From a virus (lineage: Duplodnaviria > Heunggongvirae > Uroviricota > Caudoviricetes), in the IMG/VR virus record IMGVR_UViG_3300018481_000002, positions 23,199 through 87,198 of that record: a stretch of 64,000 nt of DNA; one strand, given 5' to 3'. The notes below the pieces were generated by a model, which was not told the DNA's origin, searched no databases, and worked only from the letters and a program-made list of their open reading frames with translations. The translations under genes and the position numbers were made by a program. Of the stretch, positions 1,360 through 34,323 are shown one piece after another; position 1 is the stretch's first letter; each line of letters starts with the position of its first letter.

Positions 1360-1386
1360 TTGGCCTCCTATGGCCTCAGGGACAGA

Positions 1387-1629
1387 TCAAACGACTGTCC
1401 GAAACTCTACTTCATCCAGTTCGTCAGGGTAGGCATCGTGGCCTTTCCATGTCTCCATGTTGGTGACGAAGTACCACTCCCTGCGGAGCATCCCATCATC
1501 GTCGTACTCGGTTTCCACGGAGTCAACGACGACAACGCCTGGGATGAGGGCGTCGATGTCGGCGTCGGGTCCTGGCTGGAACAGCAGCTGTTGGTTCACC
1601 TTGTAGAGGGGTTCCTCAACGGTGATCAA
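1387..1629 (-). CDS. hypothetical small protein (80 aa)
   Basis: ORF track; acidic, collinear with block. Confidence 0.5.
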   Translation of the reverse strand: MITVEEPLYKVNQQLLFQPGPDADIDALIPGVVVVDSVETEYDDDGMLRREWYFVTNMETWKGHDAYPDELDEVEFRTVV

Positions 1630-1909
1630 CAGCGCCCTTGATGGACTCGATCGCTGCGTTGACCTCTTCGTCGGTGATGATCGGCTCCAAGTCTTCGATC
1701 GCTACCCACCATCCTTTCCGCTCCTCTCCCCGGTATGGCCGTGGCAAACCTCTCACCAGCGAACCCAAGGGGTAGGCGCAGAACACCCGGTCCTCATCGT
1801 TCTTGCTCTTATGGATCACGGTCACCTCGGTGCCGTCCGAGAAGTGGTGGTTCAAACCACAGGTGTCACCCGTGACCACGACCTGGTCGCCAACCTCGTA
1901 GTCAGCCAT
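1616..1909 (-). CDS. small protein, TDEE-tail family (..DEEVNAAIESIKGAVDHR), N-term GDQVVVTGD barrel motif
   Basis: ORF track; shared C-terminal motif and N-terminal GDxVxVTGD signature. Confidence 0.7.
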   Translation of the reverse strand: MADYEVGDQVVVTGDTCGLNHHFSDGTEVTVIHKSKNDEDRVFCAYPLGSLVRGLPRPYRGEERKGWWVAIEDLEPIITDEEVNAAIESIKGAVDHR

Positions 1910-2249
1910 CCTTTTGCTCTCGGATCTCGGCGACCAGTTGGTCGAACTGGGCCTGGATGTGGGGCGGCATGTTGGCGGACTGCTCCTGGAGGTGCTCCAT
2001 CCCCGTCACCGTCATGCGGCTGATGGCCTTCATGAAAAGCGGGAGGGCGTTGTCCAGGAGGAACAGCCCGTCGTCGTCTGCGCCGTCCTTGTTGAGCTCC
2101 AGGATGAGCTCCAGGGTGGCTGCGTTCAGGTTGATGGAGGCCTTGGTGTAGGCCACACCCTTGTGTTCGAAGATCACTCCTCGCACGACCAGATCGCCGG
2201 GCGGCTTCTCAGCGCTCACCTTCTCCTTCTTCTTCTTCCAGAAGCTCAT
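1902..2249 (-). CDS. hypothetical Lys-rich protein
   Basis: ORF 1902..2264; start moved to internal ATG (MSFWKKKK) forming ATGA overlap with stop of 2246..2662. Confidence 0.55.
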   Translation of the reverse strand: MSFWKKKKEKVSAEKPPGDLVVRGVIFEHKGVAYTKASINLNAATLELILELNKDGADDDGLFLLDNALPLFMKAISRMTVTGMEHLQEQSANMPPHIQAQFDQLVAEIREQKDG

Positions 2250-2662
2250 GTTTCCTCCCTGCATGAGCCACCAGCCAGCCCTGAGGGGATCTGGCCTTCA
2301 CTCCAGACGTGTGTCTGAATCCCAGCCCTCTCCCCACGTCGCACCATGTCGTCGGTGCCGTTGGACTTCCCGGTGGAACGAAACGCCCAGATGACATCTG
2401 GGTCGTGGTCGTCGATCATCTTCTGGTTCCGGATCGGACCCGCTGCCTTCCCGTGTGCATCCCAGTCGGCAGGTACGGCGATCACCCTGGCGTTGAACTG
2501 CGGGGCGATGCTCGCAGCCATCCGGTCCGCACCCTTGGCGTCGCCGTGGATGAGGACCAGTTCCTCGCCCTTGCGGACGCTCTCGCCCATCAGTTGGGCG
2601 AACACCATGTGGATCGGGTCAGGGTCCTTCCACCCACGAGACCCACACATCAGGACCTTCAC
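2246..2662 (-). CDS. SLOG/DUF2493-like (YspA-type Rossmann) protein
   Basis: MKVLMCGSRGW...LIHGDAKGADRMAASIA matches GSR...GADxxA signature of DUF2493/SLOG. Confidence 0.65.
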   Translation of the reverse strand: MKVLMCGSRGWKDPDPIHMVFAQLMGESVRKGEELVLIHGDAKGADRMAASIAPQFNARVIAVPADWDAHGKAAGPIRNQKMIDDHDPDVIWAFRSTGKSNGTDDMVRRGERAGIQTHVWSEGQIPSGLAGGSCREET

Positions 2663-3033
2663 CTGTCGTCGTCTTCGGTCGCTTCCAGACGGGCGTTCAG
2701 TTCGGCCTTCGCCTCCTCGAAGTCAGCCTCCACGTCATCGAAGGACATGACGTTCCCGTTGTGGATGATGTACGTGGTGTCGGTGTCAGTGTCGGTGGCC
2801 TCCAGGTAGAAGGCATCCAACCCGAACCGCATCAGCTGGATCGCGGCCACGTTGATGGCCTCGGTGAGGTTGTGGACACCAGCGACGTTGATGCTGAAGT
2901 TGATCTCGCAGTTCTCGACGAGAGGAACCTCGTGCTCCTCGGCGGGCTCCTCGGCCAGTGCATCCTGCTCGTGCTCGTCCTGCTCGTCGGTGGCAACTGG
3001 GAAGTTGTCAGGCTCGGTGGTCTGCTCGGTCAT
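2659..3033 (-). CDS. hypothetical highly acidic protein
   Basis: ORF track; ATGA overlap with downstream gene; D/E-rich. Confidence 0.6.
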   Translation of the reverse strand: MTEQTTEPDNFPVATDEQDEHEQDALAEEPAEEHEVPLVENCEINFSINVAGVHNLTEAINVAAIQLMRFGLDAFYLEATDTDTDTTYIIHNGNVMSFDDVEADFEEAKAELNARLEATEDDDR

Positions 3034-3236
3034 GGGTTCTCCTTCTCGATCGTGATGCCGTGCTTCTGTAGAAGATGGTCAACTACAGACCTTTCAGCCT
3101 GGTTCGGGTGGCCCCTCTTCCCGGACTGGTAGTCACAGGACTTGCAGCGTGCCTGGTAAAACAGGGGCCGCTTGAACCCGTGAGGGAAACCAGTGGCAGG
3201 AAGCACCTTGTAGTGGGCGTGGTAGATGCCAACCAT
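3030..3236 (-). CDS. hypothetical small protein (68 aa)
   Basis: ORF track; TGATG coupling to 3236..3736. Confidence 0.5.
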   Translation of the reverse strand: MVGIYHAHYKVLPATGFPHGFKRPLFYQARCKSCDYQSGKRGHPNQAERSVVDHLLQKHGITIEKENP

Positions 3237-3736
3237 CAGGCGTGGTGCCTCCTCAGGATGTCCATCACGTCAGCCACATCCCAGTCGTGCCCGTGGTGAA
3301 GTTGCTCTCGGCGTCCCGCACGAAGCTCAGCCTCGATGGCGTCAAGGTTGACCCTGATGACGTGGCTCCCGGACGAACGCTGGACAGCACGCAAGATGCT
3401 CCGCAACGCAGACTCCTCCTCCTGTGCAGTGGGCCCCGAGTTGAAGTCGCGGGGCACCAGGACCCGGTTGAGGGCAACGTCGTACTCCATGCCCTGCCGC
3501 TTGGACCGTGTGCCGTCCTTGTTCAACTTGATCGGCGTGTAGTGCCGCACGTAACGGATGGAAGCAGAGTCGTGGGTGGGTCCCTCCTTGATCGAGACGA
3601 TCGGGTCACCGTCGGCGTCCCGGACGTCCCCCCGAGCCTTCAACGCTGCGACAGCCTCCGCCACGTCCGCGACCTGACGCATCTCGTCGCGATCCATCGG
3701 GGTGGGAGTCCAGGTGACGACCTTGGTTGCGGTCAC
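3236..3736 (-). CDS. hypothetical protein (166 aa)
   Basis: ORF track; coupled to neighbours. Confidence 0.6.
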   Translation of the reverse strand: MTATKVVTWTPTPMDRDEMRQVADVAEAVAALKARGDVRDADGDPIVSIKEGPTHDSASIRYVRHYTPIKLNKDGTRSKRQGMEYDVALNRVLVPRDFNSGPTAQEEESALRSILRAVQRSSGSHVIRVNLDAIEAELRAGRREQLHHGHDWDVADVMDILRRHHA

Positions 3737-4032
3737 GGGGAACCCTGAGGCTCCGCATCACCGACGTAGCGGGCGTAGATGTCCACCATGTACGGCGGTC
3801 CCTCGTTGTCGCCCTCGATACGACGAGACACAACCTCGAAACCCTCCGCGAACGCCTTCACGGTGCCGTTCTTGAAGCGGGTCACCGTCCCATCCCGGAC
3901 GTTCTCCTTCAACCGAGCCCATTCACCGGGCTTCTTCTTGAGCTCCTCAGCGATGGGAGCCCACTTGCTGGGCCGTCCCACACTGCCGTCCCTGCCATCG
4001 GGAGGAGGCTCCCTCCAGTCGATGTCCACCAT
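3733..4032 (-). CDS. hypothetical protein (99 aa)
   Basis: ORF track; ATGA overlap. Confidence 0.6.
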   Translation of the reverse strand: MVDIDWREPPPDGRDGSVGRPSKWAPIAEELKKKPGEWARLKENVRDGTVTRFKNGTVKAFAEGFEVVSRRIEGDNEGPPYMVDIYARYVGDAEPQGSP

Positions 4033-4033
4033 G

Positions 4034-4393
4034 TCATGCTCCTCTCGTTGTGCTCAGGATGCTGCTGATCGCAGCGTCGATGTCCTCTTCAGGGACTACA
4101 CGCGTCAGGTCTACTTTGCTGATCCGCTTTCGGAACAGCTCGTTGTCACTGGGGGCATCACCTTTGTTGCCTCGGTACTGCTCGATGTATCGCTGCTGGT
4201 CAGGATCCCAACGGTAGACCCGCCAGTTATTGTAGAACGTTTTGTTCCACTTGTAGATCCCCTTCTTGGCTTTTTGTAGGGATTCGTGGTGCCGGATCTG
4301 ACCGGCCATCGAACCTCCCTGCCACAGCAGCCACTCAGGCGGCGGAGGGAACTCTCCCTCCAGGGGCGGGTAAGCCTTCTGGCTGTATGTCAT
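4034..4393 (-). CDS. small protein, TDEE-tail family variant (..EEDIDAAISSILSTTRGA)
   Basis: ORF track; C-terminal motif. Confidence 0.6.
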   Translation of the reverse strand: MTYSQKAYPPLEGEFPPPPEWLLWQGGSMAGQIRHHESLQKAKKGIYKWNKTFYNNWRVYRWDPDQQRYIEQYRGNKGDAPSDNELFRKRISKVDLTRVVPEEDIDAAISSILSTTRGA

Positions 4394-4806
4394 GTGACCT
4401 CCTCAGTCCATGCCAACGTGATGGACGCACCACTGCGCGTCCACGTCTCCTCGTAGTTGTTGACCTCGTCAGCCTTCGTGTAGTTGGTGCGGTGGAACCC
4501 CATGTCAAGCAAGCCTCGGCGGATCAGCTTCCTCTCGTACGCCCGGTTCGCAAGCCGACCCTTCTGGATGCTCGCCATCGCATCGGCGACGTCCTGCTCG
4601 GTCACCAGGTTCTCAAGATCCCTGGCGGCTACGTTGCGGAAGAAATCCCCCTCGCTGCAGCACCAGCCGTCGACGAGGTTCGACTTGTCTCTACCCTTAC
4701 CCGGGTATCGAACCTTGTTCACGAGCGTCACCCGCGTGCCAGGGGCGAGGTTGTGGCCCCACTCCTCTTCGTCGCCTGTGATGACTACCAGGTCACCTTC
4801 CTTCAT
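4390..4806 (-). CDS. small protein, TDEE-tail family (GDLVVITGDEEEWGHNL; internal EQDVADAMASIQKG + 45 aa extension)
   Basis: ORF track; ATGA coupling; family motifs. Confidence 0.65.
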   Translation of the reverse strand: MKEGDLVVITGDEEEWGHNLAPGTRVTLVNKVRYPGKGRDKSNLVDGWCCSEGDFFRNVAARDLENLVTEQDVADAMASIQKGRLANRAYERKLIRRGLLDMGFHRTNYTKADEVNNYEETWTRSGASITLAWTEEVT

Positions 4807-5129
4807 GACTTCTCCCTCCCGCAGGTGCAGGTGGGACAGTGGGGACGCGGAGGTGGGCGTGTCTTGATGGCCGCGATGGCCTCAGCCACCTCAGCTTCTA
4901 GGCTGAGGACAACCTCCAAGTCGGCCTCGGATACCCACCAACCGGTGTCGTCCGCTGTCGGGTCCTCTGGGTAGCAGAGCCACCCTGGGGCAGTGTCGTC
5001 CTCGTCTTCCTCGTTCTTGGTGTCGAGAACAACCCGCGTCTCGTTCTTGAAGTTGTGTCCCCAACCGGAGCTGTCGCCTGTGACGACAGCGACGTCACCC
5101 TTCTGGTAGCGGAAGACTCTCGCCCTCAT
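4803..5129 (-). CDS. small protein, TDEE-tail family (GDVAVVTGDSSGWGHNF; EAEVAEAIAAIK)
   Basis: ORF track; ATGA coupling; family motifs. Confidence 0.7.
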   Translation of the reverse strand: MRARVFRYQKGDVAVVTGDSSGWGHNFKNETRVVLDTKNEEDEDDTAPGWLCYPEDPTADDTGWWVSEADLEVVLSLEAEVAEAIAAIKTRPPPRPHCPTCTCGREKS

Positions 5130-5500
5130 GGGGTCACCTGGGTGACGCTGCGGATGCTGGCGAGGGCTTCTTCAACCTCATCATCGGACGGGCCCTCGGC
5201 TACGACGATGCGTCCGTTCACCGTGTGACAGTCTTCGTCCGACCCGTACCGGTCGAAGACATCCCACCTGACGCTGTACCTTTCTGGCCACAGGTCATCC
5301 CCGCGCTGCTCGTTGTTTTCGAATCCCATGTAACCGGAGCGGTCCGTGCCAACTCTGGTTACCGTCCCCACGGAGAACCCTTGGCTCGTCCAGGATCCTT
5401 TCCTTGAACGGGCGCTTTCACTCTCGAAGTCCGGAATCAACTGGATCCGATCCCCGACCTTGAACCGAGGCTCCGGGGGATCGTCGTAGTTCTGGCTCAT
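5126..5500 (-). CDS. small protein, TDEE-tail family (SDDEVEEALASIRSV)
   Basis: ORF track; ATGA coupling; family motif. Confidence 0.7.
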   Translation of the reverse strand: MSQNYDDPPEPRFKVGDRIQLIPDFESESARSRKGSWTSQGFSVGTVTRVGTDRSGYMGFENNEQRGDDLWPERYSVRWDVFDRYGSDEDCHTVNGRIVVAEGPSDDEVEEALASIRSVTQVTP

Positions 5501-5775
5501 GTCTTCCCCTTGATAGACTGGATCGCCTGGTGGATCTCCTTCGGGTCCACAGCTACACCGACCAGGTCAGACTCAGCCACCCACGCAGTCCAGATCCTGG
5601 GCTTCTCCTCGAACCTGTAGATGGGGGCCACGTACCAGGCGGGGAAGTCGTGGTACCCGGGGTCGTACTTCTCCCGGTACTCCAGGAGGACAACCTCTGT
5701 GCCTGCGGGGAAGGCGTGGTCGATGTCCGCTGCGTCATCCTTCACGAGGGCGAAGTCCCCTACCTTGAACAGCAT
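5497..5775 (-). CDS. small protein, TDEE-tail family (DPKEIHQAIQSIKGKT)
   Basis: ORF 5497..5820; start placed at internal ATG (MLFKVGDFALV) to reduce overlap with 5735..6079; start uncertain. Confidence 0.5.
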   Translation of the reverse strand: MLFKVGDFALVKDDAADIDHAFPAGTEVVLLEYREKYDPGYHDFPAWYVAPIYRFEEKPRIWTAWVAESDLVGVAVDPKEIHQAIQSIKGKT

Positions 5776-6079
5776 TGCTTGCCCTTTCGATGCTTCGGAT
5801 GGCTGTCTGAATTTCTTCATCAGTCGGTGCCGCTGACTCCAGGTCCTGGACGGCGACGTACCAGCCTCGGCTTCCGTCTCTGGAGGCGCAATCCCAGCAA
5901 GGGAACATGTTGCCCCCGACGGCTCTGCCTTCCTCCATGTAGTGCACGGCTTCGACGATGGTCCCGACCTCGAAGTGGTGCGCCATTTGGGCCGTATCTC
6001 CGGTCACCCTCAACAGGTCACCCTCGCGGAACTCGCGGGTGTCGATCAGCCCCTCTAGGTGCTTCGCCAGGTCGCTCAT
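5735..6079 (-). CDS. small protein, TDEE-tail family (GDLLRVTGD; PTDEEIQTAIRSIERAS)
   Basis: ORF track; family motifs. Confidence 0.65.
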   Translation of the reverse strand: MSDLAKHLEGLIDTREFREGDLLRVTGDTAQMAHHFEVGTIVEAVHYMEEGRAVGGNMFPCWDCASRDGSRGWYVAVQDLESAAPTDEEIQTAIRSIERASNAVQGRGLRPREG

Positions 6080-6504
6080 AGGTCACACTTGTGGTCGTTG
6101 ATGACTCGGTTGATGGTGTCCACGTGGGCGTGCTGGGTTTGTAGGACAACCAGCCCGCATGTGTCGTGTGTCAGCTCCCAGAACTCCCTGACTGATCGCA
6201 CCGTGAACTCGCCTGGGTCAGCGCCGTGCAGTTCGACCAGGGCGGACACGAGGTCCGTCTTCTCCTGGTCGGTGATCCCCGGCATCTCTGCCTGACTGAG
6301 ACCGAACACCTCAGCGATCTCCTGATCGGTTACCGGGCTGGTCTTCCACGGGCTCTGCCTCACGATGTGGTTAGTTTCCCTGCCGTGGGCCAGGGCCTTG
6401 TCCAGGTTCTTCGAGATGATGCCGTTGCCAGTGGCGTTCATCCTGGGCCAGGCCAGTTCACAGTCGTTGCAGTCGTACCAGATGTTCTGGGGGGTGGTGG
6501 TCAT
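6076..6504 (-). CDS. hypothetical protein with internal PVTDQEIAEVFGL motif
   Basis: ORF 6076..6519; start moved to ATG giving ATGA overlap with 6501..6719. Confidence 0.6.
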   Translation of the reverse strand: MTTTPQNIWYDCNDCELAWPRMNATGNGIISKNLDKALAHGRETNHIVRQSPWKTSPVTDQEIAEVFGLSQAEMPGITDQEKTDLVSALVELHGADPGEFTVRSVREFWELTHDTCGLVVLQTQHAHVDTINRVINDHKCDL

Positions 6505-6719
6505 CGCGTTGTGCTCCACTCCCCGTACCTGACGGACCGGACGAACACCTCCACGGCGTGACCGTTCAACGTGTTTGCCCGCTCATCTCCGGTGTAGTAG
6601 TACGCACCGTCGTCGCCGTGCTTCGGGTTGCATCCCTGGGCTTCACAGTCGACCCGCGACGTGTACTCCAGGTGTGTTCCAGCAGGAGGGAGTTGGGTGT
6701 CTTTGATGACGTCCATCAT
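6501..6719 (-). CDS. hypothetical small protein (72 aa)
   Basis: ORF track; ATGA coupling. Confidence 0.5.
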   Translation of the reverse strand: MMDVIKDTQLPPAGTHLEYTSRVDCEAQGCNPKHGDDGAYYYTGDERANTLNGHAVEVFVRSVRYGEWSTTR

Positions 6720-6961
6720 CGCTTCACCTTCTTGATAGATGCGATGGCTTCTGCGACCTCACCGTCAGACACGTGCTCCAACCGGAGACCGTCACCGATG
6801 ACCATGCTCGGGTGGTAGGCGCAGATGTGGTTCCAAGCATCGTTAACACAGTTGTCCAGTTGGCCGAACTCGTAGTCGCCGTTGGAGCACAACCCGCACT
6901 CCACGTAGCCATCGTTGATCAGCATGTACTGGAGGAACTGCTGCACCTGGTCGAGGTCCAT
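6716..6961 (-). CDS. small Cys-rich protein, TDEE-tail family (SDGEVAEAIASIKKVKR)
   Basis: ORF 6716..7132 trimmed: upstream 57 codons are Arg-rich frame artefact; internal ATG at 6961 abuts stop of 6961..7317. Confidence 0.6.
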   Translation of the reverse strand: MDLDQVQQFLQYMLINDGYVECGLCSNGDYEFGQLDNCVNDAWNHICAYHPSMVIGDGLRLEHVSDGEVAEAIASIKKVKR

Positions 6962-7266
6962 CAGGGCTCTTCGTGGGTGCAGTCCGGGCAGTCGTGCAAC
7001 TTCTTCTTCACCGGCTGGATCCCCATCAACGCCATGAACTCGGCGTCCAAGTCCGCCTCGGAGATGTCGAGGTCGAGGTCTCTCCTCAACCACCACCCCA
7101 TCGACTTGCCGTTCTCGTCCCGGATGAGCCACGTGCTGTCACCCTTGTCGTACTCGTCCGTGAACCCGACGTCGCCCACGTTGACGTCGTTGTTCCAGGT
7201 GTTCTTCTTGGTGATCACGACCCGGTCGCCGGGCCTCAGTCGCCGTGCGACTTTCTTCTTCGTCAC
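6961..7266 (-). CDS. small protein, barrel-like GDRVVITK N-term, variant tail (EADLDAEFMALMGIQP)
   Basis: ORF 6961..7317; GTG start at 7266 gives GTGA overlap with ligase stop. Confidence 0.5.
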   Translation of the reverse strand: MTKKKVARRLRPGDRVVITKKNTWNNDVNVGDVGFTDEYDKGDSTWLIRDENGKSMGWWLRRDLDLDISEADLDAEFMALMGIQPVKKKLHDCPDCTHEEP

Positions 7267-8120
7267 AGCACCTCCAAGACAGCCTTGTTGACGTGCTTCA
7301 TCTGCGAGGTCAAGCACTCGTCGGGACGCTTGTCGTCCCTCTTGCGGAGCAGGGTGGGCTGATACAGACGCCCGTTTGCACCCACGTACAGGTACTTCAC
7401 CTCCACGACATCACCCACGGCGATGGTGTCGTGTTTCTCCTTGCCGATGAGGCTGGTCCGACCAACCTCAACCACCCGGTCTAGGTGACCCGGTATCCCG
7501 GTGGTCTCGGTCCGCTGGGTCATACCCAACTTGATGGACTCCTTGCCGTCGTCGCGGACAGCCAACACCTCACAGTCAGCGGTCGTCACGAACTTCAACT
7601 TCGTCCACTCCATCGTCCGCGCACCAGACCGGTACGGCGACGACGCGTCCTTGAAGATCAGACCCTCGAAGTTGTTCCGCAGCGCGTACTCAGCCAACGA
7701 AACCTTCTCCTCGAACGTCCGAGCCTGAGGCACCAGCTTGATCGCCGGGTTCCCCTTCGCCCACAGGTGGAACGTGTGCTCCAACACGAACCGACGGTCA
7801 GTCAACGGCATCGTCGGGTCCGTCGCCGGGGACTGCGGGATGTCGAACACCCAGAACACCCCGTCCACCAACTCCCCGTCCAGGATGAACGACTGCGGGT
7901 TGGGGTCGTTGGGGAACCGGAACTCCATCAACGCCTTCGGGAGACCCTTCGTGTACGGGGTGCCGTTCCTGGTCAGGGCAGTCGGCGGGTAGTCACCACC
8001 AGGTGAGCACAGCAAGATGCGGTGCCCGTCAAGCTTCTGCTCGGCGACCTTGTTGGGGTCCTCCAGGTACGCCCGGAGCTGGTTCAGGTTGGCCTCTTCA
8101 GCCAGTTGGGGGAAGATCAT
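7263..8120 (-). CDS. lig: ATP-dependent DNA ligase (compact, 285 aa)
   Basis: motif I KLDGHR, motif III EGLIFKD, motif IV DASSPY, motif V WTKLKF; ctaGGAGG RBS. Confidence 0.8.
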   Translation of the reverse strand: MIFPQLAEEANLNQLRAYLEDPNKVAEQKLDGHRILLCSPGGDYPPTALTRNGTPYTKGLPKALMEFRFPNDPNPQSFILDGELVDGVFWVFDIPQSPATDPTMPLTDRRFVLEHTFHLWAKGNPAIKLVPQARTFEEKVSLAEYALRNNFEGLIFKDASSPYRSGARTMEWTKLKFVTTADCEVLAVRDDGKESIKLGMTQRTETTGIPGHLDRVVEVGRTSLIGKEKHDTIAVGDVVEVKYLYVGANGRLYQPTLLRKRDDKRPDECLTSQMKHVNKAVLEVL

Positions 8121-8412
8121 GGGAGCCTCCTAGGGCTTCTCGGATGGAGGCGATTGCCCCCGCTACCTCTTCGTCGGACACCTCAAGTTGGACGCCGTGC
8201 TTGTCGATGTTCAGAGGGTGGTGGTTGTCAGGTGATTCCTCAAGTCGGTAGTTGTACCCGTCCAGTCGCACACTGACTATGTCCTCCTCGTAGTAGTTGT
8301 GTGTGTCCACTACAACCCCACGAAACCCGTTCTCCTGGACGGGGTGCGACCACCCCCTCAGCTCCTTCGTCAGGATGATCCGGTTACCGATCTTGAAGTC
8401 GCTTCTTCTCAT
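8098..8412 (-). CDS. small protein, TDEE-tail family (SDEEVAGAIASIREALGG)
   Basis: ORF track; family motif; 22-nt overlap with ligase start. Confidence 0.65.
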   Translation of the reverse strand: MRRSDFKIGNRIILTKELRGWSHPVQENGFRGVVVDTHNYYEEDIVSVRLDGYNYRLEESPDNHHPLNIDKHGVQLEVSDEEVAGAIASIREALGGSHDLPPTG

Positions 8413-8467
8413 GGCCTCCTCTTCCCAGTGGGGGCCGATTGCTCGACCCCCACCTCGACCTTGGTTG

Positions 8468-9136
8468 TCACACGTCGAACGTGAAGTCCAACGCCGACAA
8501 CGCCTGGTACTCCCGCACCGACTTCATCGGGTCCTCCACCGTCTCCGGGCGAAGGTTGTGCATCAGCAGGTACATGTACGACGGAGCCTGCGAACCCTCA
8601 CGGGCCTCCTCGGCGACCGTCTTGTGCTCGAAGTCGTGGTCGTCCTTGTCCTTCGAGTGGATCAGGCTCACCGTGGTGCCGTCACGCAGCACCGCGTACA
8701 GGTTGCGAACATCCCAACGCAGGAACGGCGGCAACGCAGCCGGGGGGAACGCAGCGATGAACCGCTCGTGGAACGACTCCACCGCCTCACGCACACGGCT
8801 CTCCTCGATGGGCTCACCCTTCTGCTGCTCGTACTGCTTCTTCACGCCCTCCACCAAAGTCGGGCGCGCCTCCAGCAGTTCGTCCACAGACAGCGGACGC
8901 CAACCCTCGACAGCCATCACCATCCCGAAGGAGTCCTCGGGGTAGCGGAAACCGGAGTCGAACCCAGCGAGCATGGACTCGGCGGGGTCGCCTGGGAGCT
9001 GGCCGATGAGCTCAACCAGCGGGTCGTTCGGGTCGCCCTTCAGGGCGTACATCTTGCTGGGCAGGTCCCATCCCTGGTTGGCGAGGTCGTCAGCCAAATC
9101 CTTCAGACGGGTGTCCAAAACCTCATTCGTTGTCAT
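8468..9136 (-). CDS. hypothetical protein (222 aa)
   Basis: ORF 8468..9310 trimmed to ATG (MTTNEVLD) preceded by GAGGAGG; upstream part Arg-rich. Confidence 0.6.
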   Translation of the reverse strand: MTTNEVLDTRLKDLADDLANQGWDLPSKMYALKGDPNDPLVELIGQLPGDPAESMLAGFDSGFRYPEDSFGMVMAVEGWRPLSVDELLEARPTLVEGVKKQYEQQKGEPIEESRVREAVESFHERFIAAFPPAALPPFLRWDVRNLYAVLRDGTTVSLIHSKDKDDHDFEHKTVAEEAREGSQAPSYMYLLMHNLRPETVEDPMKSVREYQALSALDFTFDV

Positions 9137-9335
9137 GTGCAACCTCCTCAGTTGCTTGCGGGGTCGAAACAACGCGCTCAGTGCGCGTCGGCCTGCGGCC
9201 AGAAACTTCATAGGTGCCCTCGGTCTGACGGTCCACCCAGCCCTGACCATCCTTATCGTCTGCAAACTGACCCACGTACTGCTCAGGATCAACATCTGTG
9301 CGATGTACATAGGTGTTGTAGCCCCGGTTGGCCAT
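9123..9335 (-). CDS. hypothetical small protein (70 aa)
   Basis: ORF track; TGATG coupling to WGR gene. Confidence 0.4.
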   Translation of the reverse strand: MANRGYNTYVHRTDVDPEQYVGQFADDKDGQGWVDRQTEGTYEVSGRRPTRTERVVSTPQATEEVAHDNE

Positions 9336-9943
9336 CAGAGACCAGTTGCCACGTGTCCATTGAGGCTGCCAGCCATCAGCTTCTGCATCAGGGTCGCACG
9401 AACCAGACCCATCGAGGTACTCACTTCCTCGTGCTTGCTGGTGATCTCCGCGAACACCGCCTCCAGGGCGTCGAACTCCGACAGGGCCTGGTCGAAGTCC
9501 ATCTCGTCGGCCTGCGCCAGAAGACGTTGCGCTCGGTTGGAGAAGTCTTGGTAGTGCTTGAGGACGACAGCCTTGGAGCCGTCGAACTCGCCGGATGCGA
9601 TGGCCTCGCTGAGTTCACGTCCGATGGGTCCAGCGTCACCCTGCGCGGCGTACGAGATGGCGTTCTCGGTCGCAGCGAACGCGAACTCGGACACCTGGGA
9701 GTCGTATCCCTTGGACCGCTTCGAGTACACCTGGCGGAGAGCCACATCGTTGGCGTCCGAGTAGCTGCCGTACCGGGTAGCGCTGGACTGCCCAGCGGTG
9801 CCGATGCGACCCCACCGGAGGATCACGAAGTTCGACTCCGTCAGGATCACTTCGTAGAACTTGCGGCTGCTGCCCTGGATGTAGTGCATGCGCCATCCCT
9901 GGGCGGGAACAGTCACGTCGATCACCTTCGCCTTCGTTGCCAT
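9335..9943 (-). CDS. WGR-domain protein
   Basis: KFYEVILTE...FVILRWGRIGTAG = WGR signature. Confidence 0.7.
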   Translation of the reverse strand: MATKAKVIDVTVPAQGWRMHYIQGSSRKFYEVILTESNFVILRWGRIGTAGQSSATRYGSYSDANDVALRQVYSKRSKGYDSQVSEFAFAATENAISYAAQGDAGPIGRELSEAIASGEFDGSKAVVLKHYQDFSNRAQRLLAQADEMDFDQALSEFDALEAVFAEITSKHEEVSTSMGLVRATLMQKLMAGSLNGHVATGL

Positions 9944-9944
9944 G

Positions 9945-10382
9945 TCAGCCTTCTTCCTCCGCCTTCACGGCGAGGTAGGTCTGTTCACTGGCGGTGAGTT
10001 GACGCCAGTAGATTCTGGTGTTGGGGATGTTTCCGACGTTCTCGTAGTCGATGGAGAGTTCGTCTTCGGAGTCGTACTCCTTGTCGGGGTCCCAGGTGTA
10101 TTCGCCACGGTCGAGGTACTCGATGCCGACCTGGACGTTGCCTACGACGATGCGGCGTTGCCGTTGGCTCGCCAGAACGTTGCCCTTGCGGCCCCATTCC
10201 TTGAGGCACTCGTCGCAGACGCTGATCTCGATCTCGGTGCCGTCCATCGGGTCGAACACGGTGGACCCGTAGTGCCCACCAGTGGTGAACGCGGTCCCTT
10301 CGGAGGGTTGGTTGATGCTGCCCTCGAAGACGTTGTCGAGCGGCTTGTCACAACGGATGCAGGGGAGAGCGGACTTGCTCAT
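9945..10382 (-). CDS. zinc-ribbon protein (CIRCDKP...CDEC)
   Basis: ORF 9945..10616 trimmed to ATG at 10382 (MSKSALPC), 1 nt after stop of upstream gene. Confidence 0.6.
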   Translation of the reverse strand: MSKSALPCIRCDKPLDNVFEGSINQPSEGTAFTTGGHYGSTVFDPMDGTEIEISVCDECLKEWGRKGNVLASQRQRRIVVGNVQVGIEYLDRGEYTWDPDKEYDSEDELSIDYENVGNIPNTRIYWRQLTASEQTYLAVKAEEEG

Positions 10383-10383
10383 G

Positions 10384-10812
10384 TCAGCCCCTTTCCAGGA
10401 GCGCTTGGATGGATGCGATGGCTTCGTCGACGTCGACCTCAGCGGTCGCCTGCGGTCCAGTGGGAGCCTTCCCGTTCTTCCACAGGGGATGCTTCTTGGT
10501 GACGGTGCCCACTGGGAGGTGGTAGGTCTCGATCCACTCGCCGCCGTGGTTTTCGTACACACGGTGGGAGCGGGTGGTGACACCGCTGTTGCGGTTGGCG
10601 TTGGCGCTGATGTCACGCTTGACCAGGCTCATGCTGTCCAACTTCGTGAACAACCCGGTCACCGTGTACGTGTGGTCCTCGATCGGACCGTCGTAGCGGA
10701 CTCGACGCTTCACGGTCTTGTCGTACGGCTCCGCCCACAGCCCGTACTCGACCTCTCTGGGGAAGTCATCAGGGCTGCTGGCAGACCACTTGTTCGTACC
10801 GCGCCTAGCCAT
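10384..10812 (-). CDS. small protein, TDEE-tail family (VDVDEAIASIQALLERG)
   Basis: ORF trimmed to MARRGTNKW; paralog of 10805..11170 (HLPVGTVTKKHPLW vs HIPKGSKWADHPF). Confidence 0.6.
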   Translation of the reverse strand: MARRGTNKWSASSPDDFPREVEYGLWAEPYDKTVKRRVRYDGPIEDHTYTVTGLFTKLDSMSLVKRDISANANRNSGVTTRSHRVYENHGGEWIETYHLPVGTVTKKHPLWKNGKAPTGPQATAEVDVDEAIASIQALLERG

Positions 10813-11170
10813 CGCTGCGCTCCAGGAGGACTGAGGTGATGGACGCGATGGCCTTGCTGACCTGCGCATCCGATGGGCCCTTGATGGTTGCCTTCGTGGA
10901 ATGCTTCGCCTGCACGAAGGGATGGTCAGCCCACTTGGATCCCTTGGGGATGTGGTGGAGTTCCACCCACTCGTCAAGTTCGTGGTCCCAGGCGTAGACG
11001 TAAGCGTCAGCGACCAGGGTGCCGTTCTGCTCGTGGCCAGGGCTCTGGGAGATGGACGCCTTGGCGTGCCCCAGAGAGGGGTGGGTTTTGAAAGTGGACG
11101 CCCTGGGGTAGAAGTGCGTGGCGTACAGGTACGGCCTAGCGAACTTCAACGGGTCAGGTTTGGCGTGCAT
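10805..11170 (-). CDS. small protein, TDEE-tail family (QVSKAIASITSVLLERSDG)
   Basis: ORF trimmed to MHAKPDPL with AAGGAGG RBS. Confidence 0.6.
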   Translation of the reverse strand: MHAKPDPLKFARPYLYATHFYPRASTFKTHPSLGHAKASISQSPGHEQNGTLVADAYVYAWDHELDEWVELHHIPKGSKWADHPFVQAKHSTKATIKGPSDAQVSKAIASITSVLLERSDG

Positions 11171-11238
11171 GCGTGGCCTCCTTGAGCCTGCGGTCGGAGT
11201 GTACCTCGATGGTGTCACCGAGCACCGACATCCAGAAC

Positions 11239-11280
11239 CAAAAATCGGTGGGGGTGTGGTCCGGCACCGATGTTCGGTTT
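11239..11280 (-). promoter_or_regulatory. conserved 40-bp intergenic element, copy A (minus strand AAACCGAACAtcggtgCCGGaccaCACCCCCACCGATTTTT)
   Basis: near-identical element at 15829, 24404, 30859, 53875; lies 20-70 nt upstream of next minus-strand start. Confidence 0.5.
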
Positions 11281-11281
11281 G

Positions 11282-11725
11282 CTAGTAGGTGGGGTGCTTG
11301 TAGCCTTCGATCAGTTCCGTCATCTCGTACAACTGGTGCTTCAACAACTCGTGGGCACGCTTGGCGCGTGGCGAGTGAAGGTCACCTTCGATGATGTCCA
11401 TCAGCTCGTGGCTGGGAGTGTCCTCGTGCAGCCCATCGGTCAGGCCGAACACGTCCAGGACTTCCTCGTCGGTCACCTCGTCGACGTTGCCGGTGAGGCG
11501 GACCTTGTCCCTGCCTATCCAGTACAGCTGGGTTCCTTGGTCCGGCCTAGGGACGGTCCCAGCCTCCATGTCGTCCCCGACAGCCAGGTTGCCCTCCGAG
11601 TGCCGGTAGGTGCCGGAACTGAACGTGTATCCGTCCACGCCGTGCACCAACAGCCGGTCACCCACCTTCCAACGCTGGGTCTTGACTACCACTTCGACGA
11701 TGTCGCCGACCCGGTACTCAGGCAA
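11282..11725 (-). CDS. small protein with GDIVEVVV barrel motif and internal VTDEEVLDVFGL motif
   Basis: ORF track; family motifs. Confidence 0.65.
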   Translation of the reverse strand: MPEYRVGDIVEVVVKTQRWKVGDRLLVHGVDGYTFSSGTYRHSEGNLAVGDDMEAGTVPRPDQGTQLYWIGRDKVRLTGNVDEVTDEEVLDVFGLTDGLHEDTPSHELMDIIEGDLHSPRAKRAHELLKHQLYEMTELIEGYKHPTY

Positions 11726-12041
11726 GGCCGAACAACTCCTTCACCTCTTCATCGGTGACCTGGTCATACGGGAGCACCATCTGAATGCCCTTGTAGAAGA
11801 CGTCGACGAAGAACCCATGCTCACCCTTCTGGTTGGCCAGCACGACCATGCCGTCATTGGGGGTGTAACGATCCCTGTCGAAGTTGTACCCACATACGTA
11901 CACCGGCTCCGTTGGGTCGAAGTCGCCGCCTCCACCAGGACAACTGCTGTGATGTTCGGGGAGGATGGTGACCTCCTCACCCTCCTCGAATGTGACTCCG
12001 GCGATGGTGACGTACCGAGGCTTCTTGGTCTTCTTAGGCAA
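11718..12041 (-). CDS. small protein, TDEE-tail family (VTDEEVKELFGLA)
   Basis: tandem paralog, 8-nt overlap junction. Confidence 0.7.
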   Translation of the reverse strand: MPKKTKKPRYVTIAGVTFEEGEEVTILPEHHSSCPGGGGDFDPTEPVYVCGYNFDRDRYTPNDGMVVLANQKGEHGFFVDVFYKGIQMVLPYDQVTDEEVKELFGLA

Positions 12042-12351
12042 GGCCGAACAACTCCTTCACCTCGTCGTCGGTGACAGGCTTGATCTTCGGTTCGACAACC
12101 TGCCGGAGACCTCTCCACACCTGCACCCAGTGCCCGTGGAACCCACCCCGGTCGTTCACAACCAGCTGGCCGTCGTTCAGGTGGTTCTGGTTCCCCTCGG
12201 TGACGTTGTACCCGGCGACGTACTTCACCGAACTGACCCCACTCTTGTAGGTGACGATCACCGTCTCGCCAACCTTGAACTTCGCGGTCACGGTGCGGTC
12301 CTCCGAGTGGAACACCGTGAACTCGACTCCATCCTCAACCTCTTCATCCAA
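12034..12351 (-). CDS. small protein, TDEE-tail family (VTDDEVKELFGLA)
   Basis: tandem paralog, 8-nt overlap junction. Confidence 0.7.
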   Translation of the reverse strand: MDEEVEDGVEFTVFHSEDRTVTAKFKVGETVIVTYKSGVSSVKYVAGYNVTEGNQNHLNDGQLVVNDRGGFHGHWVQVWRGLRQVVEPKIKPVTDDEVKELFGLA

Positions 12352-12679
12352 GACCGAACACCTCCCTCACTTCCTCGTCAGTAACGGGCTTCCATCGGGG
12401 CACGATCAGCAGACGACCGGACGGGTCGTGGGTGTCACACCACCAGCCGCCACCGTCCTCACCTGGGACGTCGTGGATGGCGACCTGGTCCGTCCATGCG
12501 GAGTCGTCCTCGAAGGTGTAGTGCCCCACGTAGCCCTCGAAACCGTTATCGTAGGCGTCGATCATGCGCTTGTCTTTGAGCCAGTGCTCTAGCAAGACCA
12601 CCTCTTCGTCTTCGACGAACGTGACACCGTTGATCTCTTTCGACCTCGGGTAGTCCGGGTGCTTCTTCTTCTTAGCCAT
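12344..12679 (-). CDS. small protein, TDEE-tail family (VTDEEVREVFGLG)
   Basis: tandem paralog, 8-nt overlap junction. Confidence 0.7.
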   Translation of the reverse strand: MAKKKKHPDYPRSKEINGVTFVEDEEVVLLEHWLKDKRMIDAYDNGFEGYVGHYTFEDDSAWTDQVAIHDVPGEDGGGWWCDTHDPSGRLLIVPRWKPVTDEEVREVFGLG

Positions 12680-13172
12680 CGACCCAGTCCGTCACCTCGC
12701 GGCGAACCACCCGACAGTCGTCCTTGAACATGTAGTTGTCGATCCAACCCTGCACCTCATCACGGGTCTTCCCGTCCCAGAGCGTCAAGTCCTCCTGAAG
12801 GGAGGCCCGGTTCTGCTCCATGACACCCCATTCGGTGTGGGTCTCGCCCTTCAACTCCTCGTCAACCCGCACAGCTTCCTGGGTGACAACGGACTGGATG
12901 GAGGCGATTGCAGCCTCTACCTCGGATTCGTCAGGAGCCAGTTCGTGGGCGATGCAGTCCTCGTGGACCCACTTGCCTTTCAAGCCAACGTGGTGAGGTT
13001 TGCCGTCGTAGTCGCCGACCTCGACGACCTCGCACACCTCACCGATCTCGAAGATCGGTTTCCCGTTGTCCCTCACGTGGTACTTGAAGTAGGGCTTCTC
13101 TCTGTGAGGCTCCATCAAGAACTTGGCCTCCGAGACCAGGTAGACGGTGTCACCTCGGTTGTACTTGCTCAC
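12672..13172 (-). CDS. protein with GDTVYLV barrel motif and internal ESEVEAAIASIQSV motif plus 65-aa extension
   Basis: ORF track; family motifs. Confidence 0.65.
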   Translation of the reverse strand: MSKYNRGDTVYLVSEAKFLMEPHREKPYFKYHVRDNGKPIFEIGEVCEVVEVGDYDGKPHHVGLKGKWVHEDCIAHELAPDESEVEAAIASIQSVVTQEAVRVDEELKGETHTEWGVMEQNRASLQEDLTLWDGKTRDEVQGWIDNYMFKDDCRVVRREVTDWVDG

Positions 13173-13462
13173 CGCTCACCTCCCTGGATGCTGGTGATCG
13201 CTTCACGAATGTCGTCGTCGGTCACCGGCTCGAAGTTCGAGACCGCATCGACTGGGAACACCCAGGAGCGGTCGGGGAAAATGACCCCGACGGAGTCGAC
13301 TCTGCCGTTCGTTGTGTTGATGGCTCTAACTTCACCGACGGCCCCAACCACTGGGAAGGGGTCGCGGGTTGGTTTGTTTCTGTAGGCGTCGCTTACGTGG
13401 GGGTCTGAGCGGACCACCCACACCTTCTGGCCGTAGTACCAGCCGTCGACGCCGTCAGGCAC
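13169..13462 (-). CDS. small protein, TDEE-tail family (PVTDDDIREAITSIQGGER; bridges FGLA and AIASI variants)
   Basis: ORF track; ATGA coupling. Confidence 0.65.
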   Translation of the reverse strand: MPDGVDGWYYGQKVWVVRSDPHVSDAYRNKPTRDPFPVVGAVGEVRAINTTNGRVDSVGVIFPDRSWVFPVDAVSNFEPVTDDDIREAITSIQGGER

Positions 13463-13769
13463 CCATCACGCTCTGGATGGATGCGATCGCTGCCTCCACC
13501 TCCGCATCGGACACGGAGTCCATGATGAGCAGCGACTCGTCGGCGAGGTGGTAGCCATGGTTTGCCGTCGACTCGGCGTAGCGGTACTCGTCGAACCTGA
13601 TCCCGTACGTCACACCAACAGCAGGCTTGTTCCTGGCGCTCAACACGTCCGGGTCGTCGAGGAGGGCAACCACCTCGCCACGGTAGTGTTCAGGCCAGAC
13701 ACCGGGGGCGAGTTCGTCCTTGTCCAGGAGGAACCGGTCGCCGGGTTGGAACTTGAAGACCTCCATCAC
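13455..13769 (-). CDS. small protein, TDEE-tail family (SDAEVEAAIASIQSVMGA)
   Basis: ORF track. Confidence 0.65.
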   Translation of the reverse strand: MMEVFKFQPGDRFLLDKDELAPGVWPEHYRGEVVALLDDPDVLSARNKPAVGVTYGIRFDEYRYAESTANHGYHLADESLLIMDSVSDAEVEAAIASIQSVMGA

Positions 13770-13999: not shown

Positions 14000-14065
14000 T
14001 AGTGACTCCTAGTGTGGGGGTACAGGATCAACGATCGCGTCGGGGTTGCGGTATGGGCATGGAAC

Positions 14066-15828: not shown

Positions 15829-15869
15829 GAAAAAACGGTGGGTTGTTAGTCGGTGCCTTTGTTCGGTTT
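15829..15869 (-). promoter_or_regulatory. conserved 40-bp intergenic element, copy B
   Basis: aaaaacggtgggttgttagtcggtgcctttgttcggttt; T-tract ends 20 nt upstream of vWA ATG. Confidence 0.5.
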
Positions 15870-16085
15870 GATGCCGAGTGAGTCGAGGATGTAGGCCATC
15901 TCTTCCTCGGTGGGTTCGTCGGCCCAGATGGCTGCCCGCATTGTCCCGTCCACACTGCACGAGTGTGTGCTGGCTTTGTGGTGAGGTTCGCCCGCGAGGA
16001 TGGCTTTGGTGTTGTCCCATTCGTGGGCGGTGTAGACAGCTTCGACCTTCTCGCCGCAGCCGCTGCACTCCCAACCCCAGATCAT
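15846..16085 (-). CDS. small zinc-ribbon protein with ..EEEMAYILDSLGI tail
   Basis: WECSGCG...; paralog of next two genes; ATGA coupling. Confidence 0.55.
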   Translation of the reverse strand: MIWGWECSGCGEKVEAVYTAHEWDNTKAILAGEPHHKASTHSCSVDGTMRAAIWADEPTEEEMAYILDSLGIKPNKGTD

Positions 16086-16264
16086 GGTTCGACTCCTAGG
16101 GATTTGTAGAGGTAGGCCATGTCCTCGTCTGAGGGTGGTCCTTGCTCATTCGCCCAGAAGACTCGATCAGGATGGACTTCCCGGTCGTGGAGCTTGGCGT
16201 CTTCCGGGGTTGGACTGGAGGGATCCCACCACTTACCGCACTCCCGGCATTTCCATCCCCCCAT
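16082..16264 (-). CDS. small zinc-ribbon protein with ..DEDMAYLYKSLGVEP tail
   Basis: WKCRECGKWW...HDREVHPDRVFW; TGATG coupling. Confidence 0.6.
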   Translation of the reverse strand: MGGWKCRECGKWWDPSSPTPEDAKLHDREVHPDRVFWANEQGPPSDEDMAYLYKSLGVEP

Positions 16265-16461
16265 CAGGACACTCCCAGCGACTTGTATACGTAGGCCATG
16301 TCTTCAGCGGGGGGTGGGGTGGCCTCGGCAACCGAGGTCTCCCACACCTTGTTGGGGTGCACTTCCCTGTCGTGATGGAGCGCTTGACGGTTCACCTCAC
16401 CGTCCGGGTCGCGCTGGGACCATCGTCTACGGCAGGTTTCGCACTCCCATTCCCTGTCCAT
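16264..16461 (-). CDS. small zinc-ribbon protein with ..AEDMAYVYKSLGVS tail
   Basis: ORF 16264..16572 trimmed to MDREWECETC; HHDREVHPNKVWE shared with neighbour. Confidence 0.6.
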   Translation of the reverse strand: MDREWECETCRRRWSQRDPDGEVNRQALHHDREVHPNKVWETSVAEATPPPAEDMAYVYKSLGVS

Positions 16462-21944: not shown

Positions 21945-22453
21945 TGGTCGGGGTCGCTTCCCCGGAGGAACTTGTAGATCTCCTTCGACAGGTCAACGAT
22001 GTCCGCAGGCGGCTGCTCCTCCTGCTTCTTCAGAGCCTTCTCCCACTTCTCGGACATGTTGATCGGCTCGGAAGCCATGTCACGGATGTGGTCCAGGACC
22101 TTCGTGTACTCGTCCGCGTCCCATCCCTCGATGCCAGCCAGCTGGTGGTACGGCGGCGGCTCCGTCGGGACGTTGAAGTAGTAGGTGCGGTACGTGTTGT
22201 CGTACGTGTCTTCCTGGTCGTAGAGGAACTCTGGGTGTGCGGACAGCATCACGTCGATGTTGGGGTCGGCGTTGTCTCCGCCGTTCCTGGTGTAGAACGC
22301 GAGGCGGAGGGTTCCGTCGTCGAGTTTCTCGATCCAGGCGTCTCGGTACCGGGCGAACGCTTCCCGCTCCAGGCCCAGGAGGTTCAGGCCGAGCAGGGAG
22401 CCACGGAGTTCTTCTTGTCCGTCGCCGAAGATCATGTTGTAGAGGCCGCTCAT
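21941..22453 (-). CDS. hypothetical protein (170 aa)
   Basis: ORF track; ATGA coupling. Confidence 0.6.
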   Translation of the reverse strand: MSGLYNMIFGDGQEELRGSLLGLNLLGLEREAFARYRDAWIEKLDDGTLRLAFYTRNGGDNADPNIDVMLSAHPEFLYDQEDTYDNTYRTYYFNVPTEPPPYHQLAGIEGWDADEYTKVLDHIRDMASEPINMSEKWEKALKKQEEQPPADIVDLSKEIYKFLRGSDPDQ

Positions 22454-22794
22454 GGCGTCTCCTTAAGTTTGAACACCTGTCTGATTTCTTCGTCGGTGAC
22501 TGGTTGGAAGACGTCTTCGAGACCGTAGATGTCAATGCACACGCCTTCCCACGGGTAGCCGTGGATGCTGTGTTTCAGGTCAGGGTCGATCGCGGTGAAG
22601 TCGACTGTGACGTAAGGCTGTTGCTGGTCGAGGTGTACCTCGGTGACGATCGCTCGCTTGCCTTCGTATCTCTCGGGTTCCGCGCCAGTGTCGCCGAACT
22701 CGTCCGCAGGGTTGTTCGGGATGTGTTTCCCCATCCACCAGTTCTCCCTGACGAGCACCTCGTCGCCTACTTCCGGCACCCAGTCACCGCTCAT
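22450..22794 (-). CDS. small protein, TDEE-tail family (GDEVLVREN; PVTDEEIRQVFKLKETP)
   Basis: ORF track; family motifs. Confidence 0.65.
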   Translation of the reverse strand: MSGDWVPEVGDEVLVRENWWMGKHIPNNPADEFGDTGAEPERYEGKRAIVTEVHLDQQQPYVTVDFTAIDPDLKHSIHGYPWEGVCIDIYGLEDVFQPVTDEEIRQVFKLKETP

Positions 22795-34137: not shown

Positions 34138-34323
34138 GAACTTCTTTGCGCGATCCTTGGCTGGAAGGTGGTGGCCGCGTGCATGCACAGCATCTAGAAC
34201 CTGCTTCGCGAGCGCCCGACGCTCCTCTGCGCTGAACTCCGACGGGTTAGGTACGTGCTTGGGGCACGCGCACCGTGCGTTCTCGAAGTGACAGCGCGGA
34301 CATGGGGTGTGGTCGTCATCCAT
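34117..34323 (-). CDS. Cys-rich small protein (68 aa)
   Basis: CPRCHFENARCACPKH; ORF track. Confidence 0.45.
   Translation of the reverse strand: MDDDHTPCPRCHFENARCACPKHVPNPSEFSAEERRALAKQVLDAVHARGHHLPAKDRAKKFRSTRDA

Follow-up and report, generated by a model that had tools for sequence, protein, structure and literature searches.

Short peptides shared by otherwise diverse proteins are known, as are arrays of small phage paralogues. The acidic C-terminal tip of the single-stranded DNA-binding protein (SSB) and the beta-clamp-binding motifs illustrate how one short, usually terminal peptide brings many unrelated proteins to one hub. Family 1 encapsulin targeting peptides are found at the C-terminus of unrelated proteins, follow a flexible linker and bind one common surface; their consensus is Gly-rich (SDGSLGIGSLKRS or TVGSL, and ...IGSLKRS) (PMC8346489). 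Here we describe a short acidic motif that recurs on small proteins encoded by a 64,000-nucleotide (nt) stretch of DNA from an uncultured virus (positions 23,199 to 87,198 of IMG/VR record IMGVR_UViG_3300018481_000002; hereafter the window). Sequence and model comparisons show a motif that is real, maintained at the peptide level, modular, and retained on different folds as well as among divergent phages; we tentatively propose that it is a docking helix.

The original prediction, made from the DNA letters, described a 13-residue signature on at least 25 small proteins encoded between 1616 and 13769, with further copies outside this run. A loose regular expression returned 17 matches on the minus strand and 2 on the plus strand, and a first hidden Markov model (HMM), built from 12 seeds defined by such expressions, picked up non-seed members at 12672, 4390, 10384 and 12344 (carriers are designated by their first coordinate; Table 1). 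The final HMM (18 columns, 27 seeds) was used to score 1337 six-frame segments of the window. It recovered 27 copies at 11.7-22.1 bits, every one in a minus-strand coding frame, and the best segment below them reached 4.7 bits. Two non-seed copies, scoring 22.3 and 16.9 bits, were found on the same contig within 10 kb outside the window. When each N-terminal family was left out of the model in turn, 19 of the 27 members still scored at least 8 bits. Fifty residue shuffles gave a maximum of 7.7 bits (none reached 8 bits), reversed sequences a maximum of 6.0 bits, and five related phage loci with a high guanine-plus-cytosine (GC) content that bear DUF6744 (37 kb) a maximum of 2.3 bits. Since shuffles, reversed sequences and related high-GC loci were all without matches, composition was ruled out as the cause of the pattern, and with it the codon-bias artefact against which the original prediction had itself cautioned. 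The motif was therefore present at the predicted places and far above chance expectation, albeit in smaller numbers: of the ~32 genes in the run from 1616 to 13769, 19 carry a strong copy. All eight copies predicted elsewhere on the minus strand (15846, 16082, 16264, 22450, 25081, 28174, 34316 and 39973) were recovered by the HMM. The proposed plus-strand copy (62143-62484) scored just 2.3 bits and had no statistical support, and a further candidate at 6961 (-3.2 bits) was likewise unsupported. In five proteins (4390, 6076, 11282, 12672 and 28174) the motif was confirmed to be internal, with 49-83 further residues following it.

To describe the motif, 89 distinct instances were compiled from the window and elsewhere. 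Their consensus is x-x-P-[VP]-[TS]-[DE]-E-E-[VIL]-A-E-A-[IYF]-x-S-[IL], with a mean charge of -3.1; the motif itself, P-[VP]-[TS]-[DE]-E-E-[VIL]-x-x-A-[IYF]-x-S-[IL], has 12-14 residues. The motif ends no more than 20 residues from the C-terminus in 75 of the 89 instances (84%), and Pro accounts for 26% of the four residues preceding the N-cap; in carriers 25081, 34316, 16264 and 10384 the motif is preceded by a long Pro- or Lys-rich linker. The motif is predicted to form an N-capped, acidic, amphipathic helix. Its first half, [VP]-[TS]-D-E-E-[VIL], corresponds to what we take to be a textbook hydrophobic staple and capping box. In its second half, V/I, A, I/Y/F and I/L are predicted to share one side of the helix with a small, conserved Ser, and the small residues on this hydrophobic face are well kept (Ala at column 12 in 62% and Ser at column 15 in 70% of instances). 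Three variants were distinguished, AIxSI, VFGL and VYKSLG, with bridging intermediates between them such as PPPTDEEIADVMTSLGITQ.

When the motif was masked, BLASTP comparisons placed the 27 carriers in 14 unlinked N-terminal groups. Families A, B and D each comprise 3-6 adjacent paralogues, and tandem duplication is evident. The AlphaFold2 (AF2) model of the family A protein at 5735-6079 contained a barrel followed by a helix at the motif, the helix beginning 4 residues past the last strand with a predicted local distance difference test score (pLDDT) of ~80. In family A the N-terminal domain is a small barrel of five strands that can be superimposed on known SH3-like domains, which places it among the SH3-like/KOW/Tudor folds; the predicted SH3/KOW-like barrel thus held as a fold, but not as a KOW profile, no match to PF00467 being obtained even at E up to 1. 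The second AF2 model (34316-34606; low depth, pLDDT 66) had an alpha/beta, non-barrel N-terminal domain, a linker (residues 72-78) and the motif helix (residues 79-94, pLDDT 38-57). With a family A profile, HMMER was run exhaustively over 1.84 billion representatives and returned 153 matches at E <=1e-3. Many of these were barrel-only (69-73 aa) or tandem-barrel proteins without the motif; 47 external representatives carried it, all three variants among them. Collectively, the 14 unlinked groups, the non-barrel second model and the barrel-only homologues bore out the idea of a separable helix on varied small domains, and sequence comparison shows the motif to be a separable module behind at least 14 unlinked N-terminal parts.

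Several other features of these proteins were noted. Three repeat-rich proteins returned by the HMMER scan (P0018, P0021 and P0037) were discarded as accumulation artefacts; P0021 (2529 aa) contains 17 copies of ...STDVQAAIEEIQTELD, a look-alike but unrelated N-capped helix, and matches the profile through repetition only. In 10 barrel-family proteins (residues 97-104 of 4803-5129, and P0015, P0036, P0046, P0047, P0048, P0072, P0073, P0108 and P0149), the motif is followed at a distance of 5-10 residues by a second recurrent tail, P-H-C-x-T-C-x-C, which could be a metal-binding tail or one modified at Cys or Thr. A CxxC...HxxxH-type spacing is seen at 15846-16455 (three genes in tandem), 6716-6961, 34316-34606 and 6076-6504, which suggests small zinc-finger-like domains. 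Three external homologues, P0008 (from relative L007, 276-740), P0125 and P0032, have extra C-terminal domains after the motif; that of P0008 looks ribbon-helix-helix-like by eye, and P0125 and P0032 have a common F-[AG]-R-G-Y segment. Because these three proteins continue past the motif, it can also serve as an inter-domain element.

The motif was also found in relatives of this phage. An 11.7-kb, fully syntenic contig (L016) encodes 8-10 copies between the end of a vWA gene and DUF6744, in the order vWA end, motif open reading frames, Lsr2, WGR, ligase, YAcAr, DUF6744. Relative L006 (ligase 55% identical) has 2-3 copies, the IMG/VR relative L009 1-3 copies, L018 and L019 2 copies each, and L007 (DUF6744 84% identical) a single copy scoring 26.2 bits. 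The non-barrel family B and 8098 have orthologues (in L016, L006, L009, L018 and L019) that keep A-x-x-S-I at only 25-45% identity, and A-x-x-S-I is among the few invariant columns of these alignments.

Searches of annotated collections agreed with the original statement that the signature fits no named domain family: no gathering score was reached in Pfam-A (20 members), PHROGs v4 (10 members) or NCBIfam 20 (10 members), no family recurred among members, and a sequence profile search of the PDB gave no match. Deposited phages searched by tblastn with one family member and with a 30-aa consensus yielded nothing meaningful, and alignment-driven scans found no copy in IMG/VR or in 185,579 GTDB species genomes. 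A degenerate-DNA scan of IMG/VR returned 3 matches, apparently in portal and capsid proteins, which were taken as chance. A 40-bit degenerate pattern run against GTDB (596 Gb) also gave 3 matches, at chance level, read by eye as trigger factor, ScpB and a large Planctomycetota protein. The trigger factor and ScpB segments, PATDEEVDTAIESIRKA and PVTDEEIEEALRSIAQKY, fit the motif pattern, so its first half corresponds to a generic helix start; these look-alikes are, however, single internal helices of large conserved proteins, whereas the window motif is a C-terminal module on dozens of co-encoded mini-proteins. A literature search on DUF6744 and on phage multigene families with a shared C-terminus found nothing relevant. 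The motif and the barrel-plus-motif family are undescribed and confined to uncultured phages.

We therefore hypothesize, tentatively and with somewhat less than even confidence, that the motif is a shared docking helix contacting one common partner outside its own domain. A common external surface is most likely because the helix face stays the same from fold to fold and between divergent orthologues, and because the motif is often flexibly tethered. The motif has spread through a run of small genes that are densely packed and translationally coupled; as a docking helix it would connect a variety of small 'head' domains with a single partner or hub, which could be either phage- or host-encoded. 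The nearest candidate partner would be the vWA protein, which has an intact metal ion-dependent adhesion site (MIDAS), is paired with a MoxR ATPase and is flanked by the motif run. MIDAS sites bind acidic ligand residues, which makes the vWA-MoxR pair an obvious first candidate on grounds of synteny only. Several points weigh against a shared docking helix. No binding partner was found for the motif helix. Its N-terminal half is the generic helix-start signature described above. In family A, the short linker of 4 residues and the pLDDT of ~80 mean that the helix may pack on its own barrel, and given three variants (AIxSI, VFGL and VYKSLG) there is possibly no single partner. DUF6744 as an obligate partner was rejected, five DUF6744-bearing relatives having no motif in their flanks. 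It is decidedly unlikely, on our assessment, that the motif acts as a delivery tag addressing ~30 mini-proteins to a single machine, be it the vWA-MoxR MIDAS site or, much as encapsulins take up their cargo, the interior of an HK97-type capsid; if it did, viruses would possess a hitherto undescribed code for addressing cargo or substrates.

The alternatives differ in whether the conservation resides in the peptide at all. That the pattern arose by chance or from composition, in the Ala/Glu-rich tails of high-GC coding sequence, has a practically negligible probability: T-D-E-E-V is a common helix start and isolated look-alikes occur in unrelated proteins, but no match was obtained in 50 shuffles, reversed sequences, off-frames or the 37 kb of related high-GC phage DNA, and these controls refute it. 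Conservation imposed at the nucleotide level, by a ribosome-binding or coupling signal, a promoter or a recombination 'linker' at gene boundaries, is highly improbable, despite an arrangement that invites it. With few exceptions, carriers overlap the start of the following gene by 1, 4 or 8 nt, and the downstream gene's Shine-Dalgarno (SD) sequence (GGAG- or AAGG-like) lies within the last 3-5 codons of the carrier, for example in S-I-K-G = TCC ATC AAG GGC and L-G-V = CTA GGA GTC; in the FGL and SLGV variants it falls inside the motif. Almost all genes between 1616 and 16572 share this organisation, and promoter and terminator matches in 1-17000 were at chance level, which together suggests that 1616-16572 is one long translationally coupled unit. 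In a codon alignment, however, the conserved Ser was encoded by AGC in 7 and by TCN in 12 cases, and Asp, Glu and Ala used all their codons. Where two copies share a core residue (columns 5-16) the same codon was used at a frequency of 0.52, against 0.60 expected from phage codon usage. This switching between Ser codon families and the synonymous identity below expectation argue for selection on the peptide and not on the DNA. The distance from motif to stop ranges from 0 to 83 codons, and for five copies the nearest downstream gene end is 150-250 nt away. A DNA-level origin of the motif core was thus largely refuted. It stays tenable just for the K/R/G-rich positions that follow S-[IL], which overlap the downstream SD and so are partly under nucleotide constraint; the SD overlap accounts only for these trailing positions or for a trailing LGV. 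Accordingly, the core of the predicted 13-residue pattern stood, and its trailing [KQRG] position largely coincides with the SD of the overlapping gene.

The remaining alternatives accept a conserved helix and dispense with docking or specify it differently. We consider it rather unlikely that the helix is an integral element packing on its own domain, the motif being the slowest-evolving remnant of an old duplicated family without a shared partner. Such a history would agree with the tandem duplication of families A, B and D, with the short linker and pLDDT of the family A helix, and with the barrel-like character of many N-terminal groups (GDxV starts). It fits less well with a helix face kept both after a zinc-finger-like alpha/beta domain that is no barrel and in the basic family B, with Pro-rich or 25-aa charged linkers that part motif from domain in several members, with barrels that are widespread without the helix, with the position of the motif between two domains in five proteins, and with a pLDDT of only 38-57 for the helix of the second model. 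Self-association into homo- or hetero-oligomers by Ala/Ser helix packing, giving multi-headed assemblies, is unlikely; the small residues kept on the hydrophobic face are as expected for it, and ~30 carriers co-encoded in one translationally coupled run would be made together, but 12 residues at a net charge of -3 make a poor stand-alone unit since like charges repel. A targeting peptide into the capsid or another compartment or machine, the proteins then being delivered alongside the DNA or undergoing processing by a phage AAA+ system, is very unlikely. Its logic would be that of the Family 1 encapsulin peptides, which tag unrelated proteins at the C-terminus with a short sequence; I-[AG]-S-[IL]-[KR] locally resembles ...IGSLKRS, and the gene run flanks the vWA/MoxR pair in two divergent phages. 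Yet the encapsulin consensus is Gly-rich whereas Gly precedes Ser in only 12% of the instances here, the upstream half of the motif is an acidic helix, the carrier genes lie among replication and repair genes instead of structural ones, and no capsid or shell gene was seen in the 84 kb of contig DNA that was read.

The window is part of metagenome contig ENA ERZ27251452 k141_6182525 (144.5 kb; the JGI copy is 147.7 kb), and the 84 kb read comprise the window and 10 kb at either side. Its GC content is 61%, and between ~54 kb and 334 the minus strand is the coding one. Bacillus phage 0305phi8-36 and Moorella phage MTATph1 encode proteins similar to the vWA and DUF6744 proteins, the AAA ATPase (23282-24361) is 44% identical to its Microbacterium phage Pumpernickel counterpart, and DUF6744 is 61% identical to a copy on a 144.4-kb IMG/VR viral contig. 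These likenesses point to a large phage and, taken with Lsr2 in the syntenic relative L016 (2993-3421), itself a hint of an actinobacterial host, suggest an uncultured phage of ~144 kb, probably infecting Actinobacteria. No nucleotide match was found by megablast when 20 kb were compared with 50,697 deposited phage records. The neighbourhood of the motif run is non-structural (genes in Table 1). Ku, the ATP-dependent DNA ligase and the WGR protein have the appearance of a repair set of the non-homologous end joining type in one phage. The vWA, MoxR AAA+ and DUF6744 genes form a module common to Bacillus phage 0305phi8-36 and Moorella phage MTATph1; it is flanked by the motif gene run here, and in L016 the run abuts the vWA gene. 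A tRNA-Leu (CAA) gene is located on the plus strand at 57450-57524, near the strand switch at ~54-56 kb where the AT skew changes sign. Outside the window, the contig encodes a tyrosine integrase, a RuvB-like AAA protein, a sigma-70-family factor and a GH16 glycoside hydrolase (segments L005, 17567-18571, and L008, 18702-19475).

Table 1 Motif carriers, weak candidates and neighbouring genes in the window. Family letters denote N-terminal families (BLASTP); scores are those of the motif HMM.
Protein	Motif sequence	Positions	Strand	Motif positions	Bits	Remarks
97-aa SH3-like barrel, family A	TDEEVNAAIESI	1616..1909	-	1640-1675	18.9	C-terminal; same gene called on source contig
119-aa basic protein, family B	PEEDIDAAISSI	4034..4393	-	4058-4093	15.4	L016, L006, L009 orthologues keep A-[IVL]-x-S-I
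138-aa barrel, family A	TEQDVADAMASI	4390..4806	-	4567-4602	18.0	internal; 56-aa extension
108-aa barrel, family A	LEAEVAEAIAAI	4803..5129	-	4866-4901	12.4	Cys-rich PHCPTCTCG tail
124-aa protein	SDDEVEEALASI	5126..5500	-	5153-5188	17.2	singleton N-terminal group
92-aa barrel, family A	DPKEIHQAIQSI	5497..5775	-	5512-5547	15.7	start from contig gene call
114-aa barrel, family A	TDEEIQTAIRSI	5735..6079	-			AF2-modelled
142-aa CxxC-containing protein	TDQEIAEVFGLS	6076..6504	-	6295-6330	17.6	internal; 70-aa extension
81-aa CxxC...H..H protein	SDGEVAEAIASI	6716..6961	-	6734-6769	20.6	paralogue of 34316-34606
104-aa barrel-like protein	SDEEVAGAIASI	8098..8412	-	8143-8178	20.0	L018, L019 orthologues keep motif
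142-aa protein, family B	AEVDVDEAIASI	10384..10812	-	10408-10443	11.7	
121-aa protein, family B	SDAQVSKAIASI	10805..11170	-	10838-10873	13.8	L016 orthologue keeps AIDSI
147-aa protein	TDEEVLDVFGLT	11282..11725	-	11438-11473	13.7	internal; 49-aa extension
107-aa protein, family D	TDEEVKELFGLA	11718..12041	-	11721-11756	14.5	terminal; next gene's SD in V-K-E codons
105-aa protein, family D	TDDEVKELFGLA	12034..12351	-	12037-12072	14.1	terminal
111-aa protein, family D	TDEEVREVFGLG	12344..12679	-	12347-12382	18.2	terminal
166-aa protein	DESEVEAAIASI	12672..13172	-	12897-12932	15.3	internal; 72-aa extension; non-seed find of first HMM
97-aa protein	TDDDIREAITSI	13169..13462	-	13187-13222	22.1	best score in window
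104-aa protein, family E	SDAEVEAAIASI	13455..13769	-	13476-13511	19.5	paralogue of 28174
79-aa CxxC...H zinc-finger-like protein	TEEEMAYILDSL	15846..16085	-	15876-15911	15.8	detected only with own variant group in model
60-aa CxxC...HxxxH protein	SDEDMAYLYKSL	16082..16264	-	16097-16132	17.5	SD AGGAG in L-G-V codons
63-aa CxxC...HH protein	PAEDMAYVYKSL	16264..16455	-	16276-16311	14.0	
114-aa protein, family G	TDEEIRQVFKLK	22450..22794	-	22462-22497	16.4	
133-aa protein	PEEDIEAALASI	25081..25482	-	25117-25152	17.5	preceded by ~25-aa Lys/Pro-rich linker KKIKRKKPVDNTPPP (read from sequence)
186-aa protein, family E	TDQEIAETFGTF	28174..28734	-	28432-28467	16.2	internal; 83-aa extension
96-aa CxxC...HxxxHH protein	SDEEIQTAVESI	34316..34606	-	34340-34375	20.0	TPPPS linker; second AF2 model
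108-aa protein, family G	TEEELEEAIESI	39973..40299	-	40006-40041	15.8	
98-aa protein, weak candidate	TDDEVEAVDGWW	34606..34902	-		4.7	uncounted; N-terminal motif half only, within noise
113-aa protein, weak candidate	DPDDEEYVLRSLGVTA	62143..62484	+		2.3	terminal; SLGV-like by eye, unsupported statistically
DUF6744		334-1359				
YAcAr/SLOG protein		2246-2662				
ATP-dependent ligase		7263-8120				
WGR protein		9335-9943				
vWA protein		14106-15809				intact MIDAS site DKSGS...T...D
MoxR ATPase		17401-18774				
AAA ATPase		23282-24361				
Ku (PF02735)		26047-26925				

Extended series of very small genes without known function are a feature of large phages. With 19 of the ~32 genes of one tiny-gene run and 8 scattered genes sharing one peptide, some 30 unknowns are reduced to one binding question, and finding the common partner of the helix could place a whole class of dark-matter phage proteins in a pathway. 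In addition, the motif HMM serves as a marker for a lineage not represented in isolate collections, namely uncultured phages of ~144 kb that probably infect Actinobacteria.

Comparison with described systems places the motif beside several of them and within none. Carrier homology to named families, including anti-defence proteins, was not detected in the Pfam, PHROGs or NCBIfam scans. A helix-turn-helix of the XRE, LuxR or excisionase type, suggested by ...EE[LI]AEV[FY]..LG[VL], was rejected: the FGL and SLGV proteins end 0-3 residues past G-[LV], and no helix-turn-helix Pfam family was matched. The family A fold is comparable to that of small SH3/KOW/Tudor-like phage barrels, such as YorP of B. 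subtilis SPbeta (PDB 2heq) and many uncharacterised BFVD entries; these have no detectable sequence similarity to the carriers and no motif, and the fold is uninformative on the role of the motif. SHOCT (PF09851), whose function is likewise largely obscure, is similarly a small helical C-terminal module found on varied N-terminal domains of diverse bacterial proteins, but it differs in length and sequence pattern, and Pfam returned no match for the 20 members searched. Family 1 encapsulin peptides are, like the motif, short and C-terminal on diverse proteins; unlike it, they are Gly-rich, have no acidic N-capped helix and occur on few cargo proteins compared with ~30 carriers, and no capsid or encapsulin Pfam family was found among the called genes of L005 and L008 or the scanned window proteins. 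Neither the Q-L-x-L-F / Q-L-[SD]-L-F patterns nor a terminal D-D-D-I-P-F appears in the column frequencies of the 89 instances. Like the SSB tip and the beta-clamp-binding motifs, the window motif is nonetheless a short conserved peptide appended to many unrelated proteins; it differs from them in that its sequence is unrelated and that all its carriers here come from one phage.

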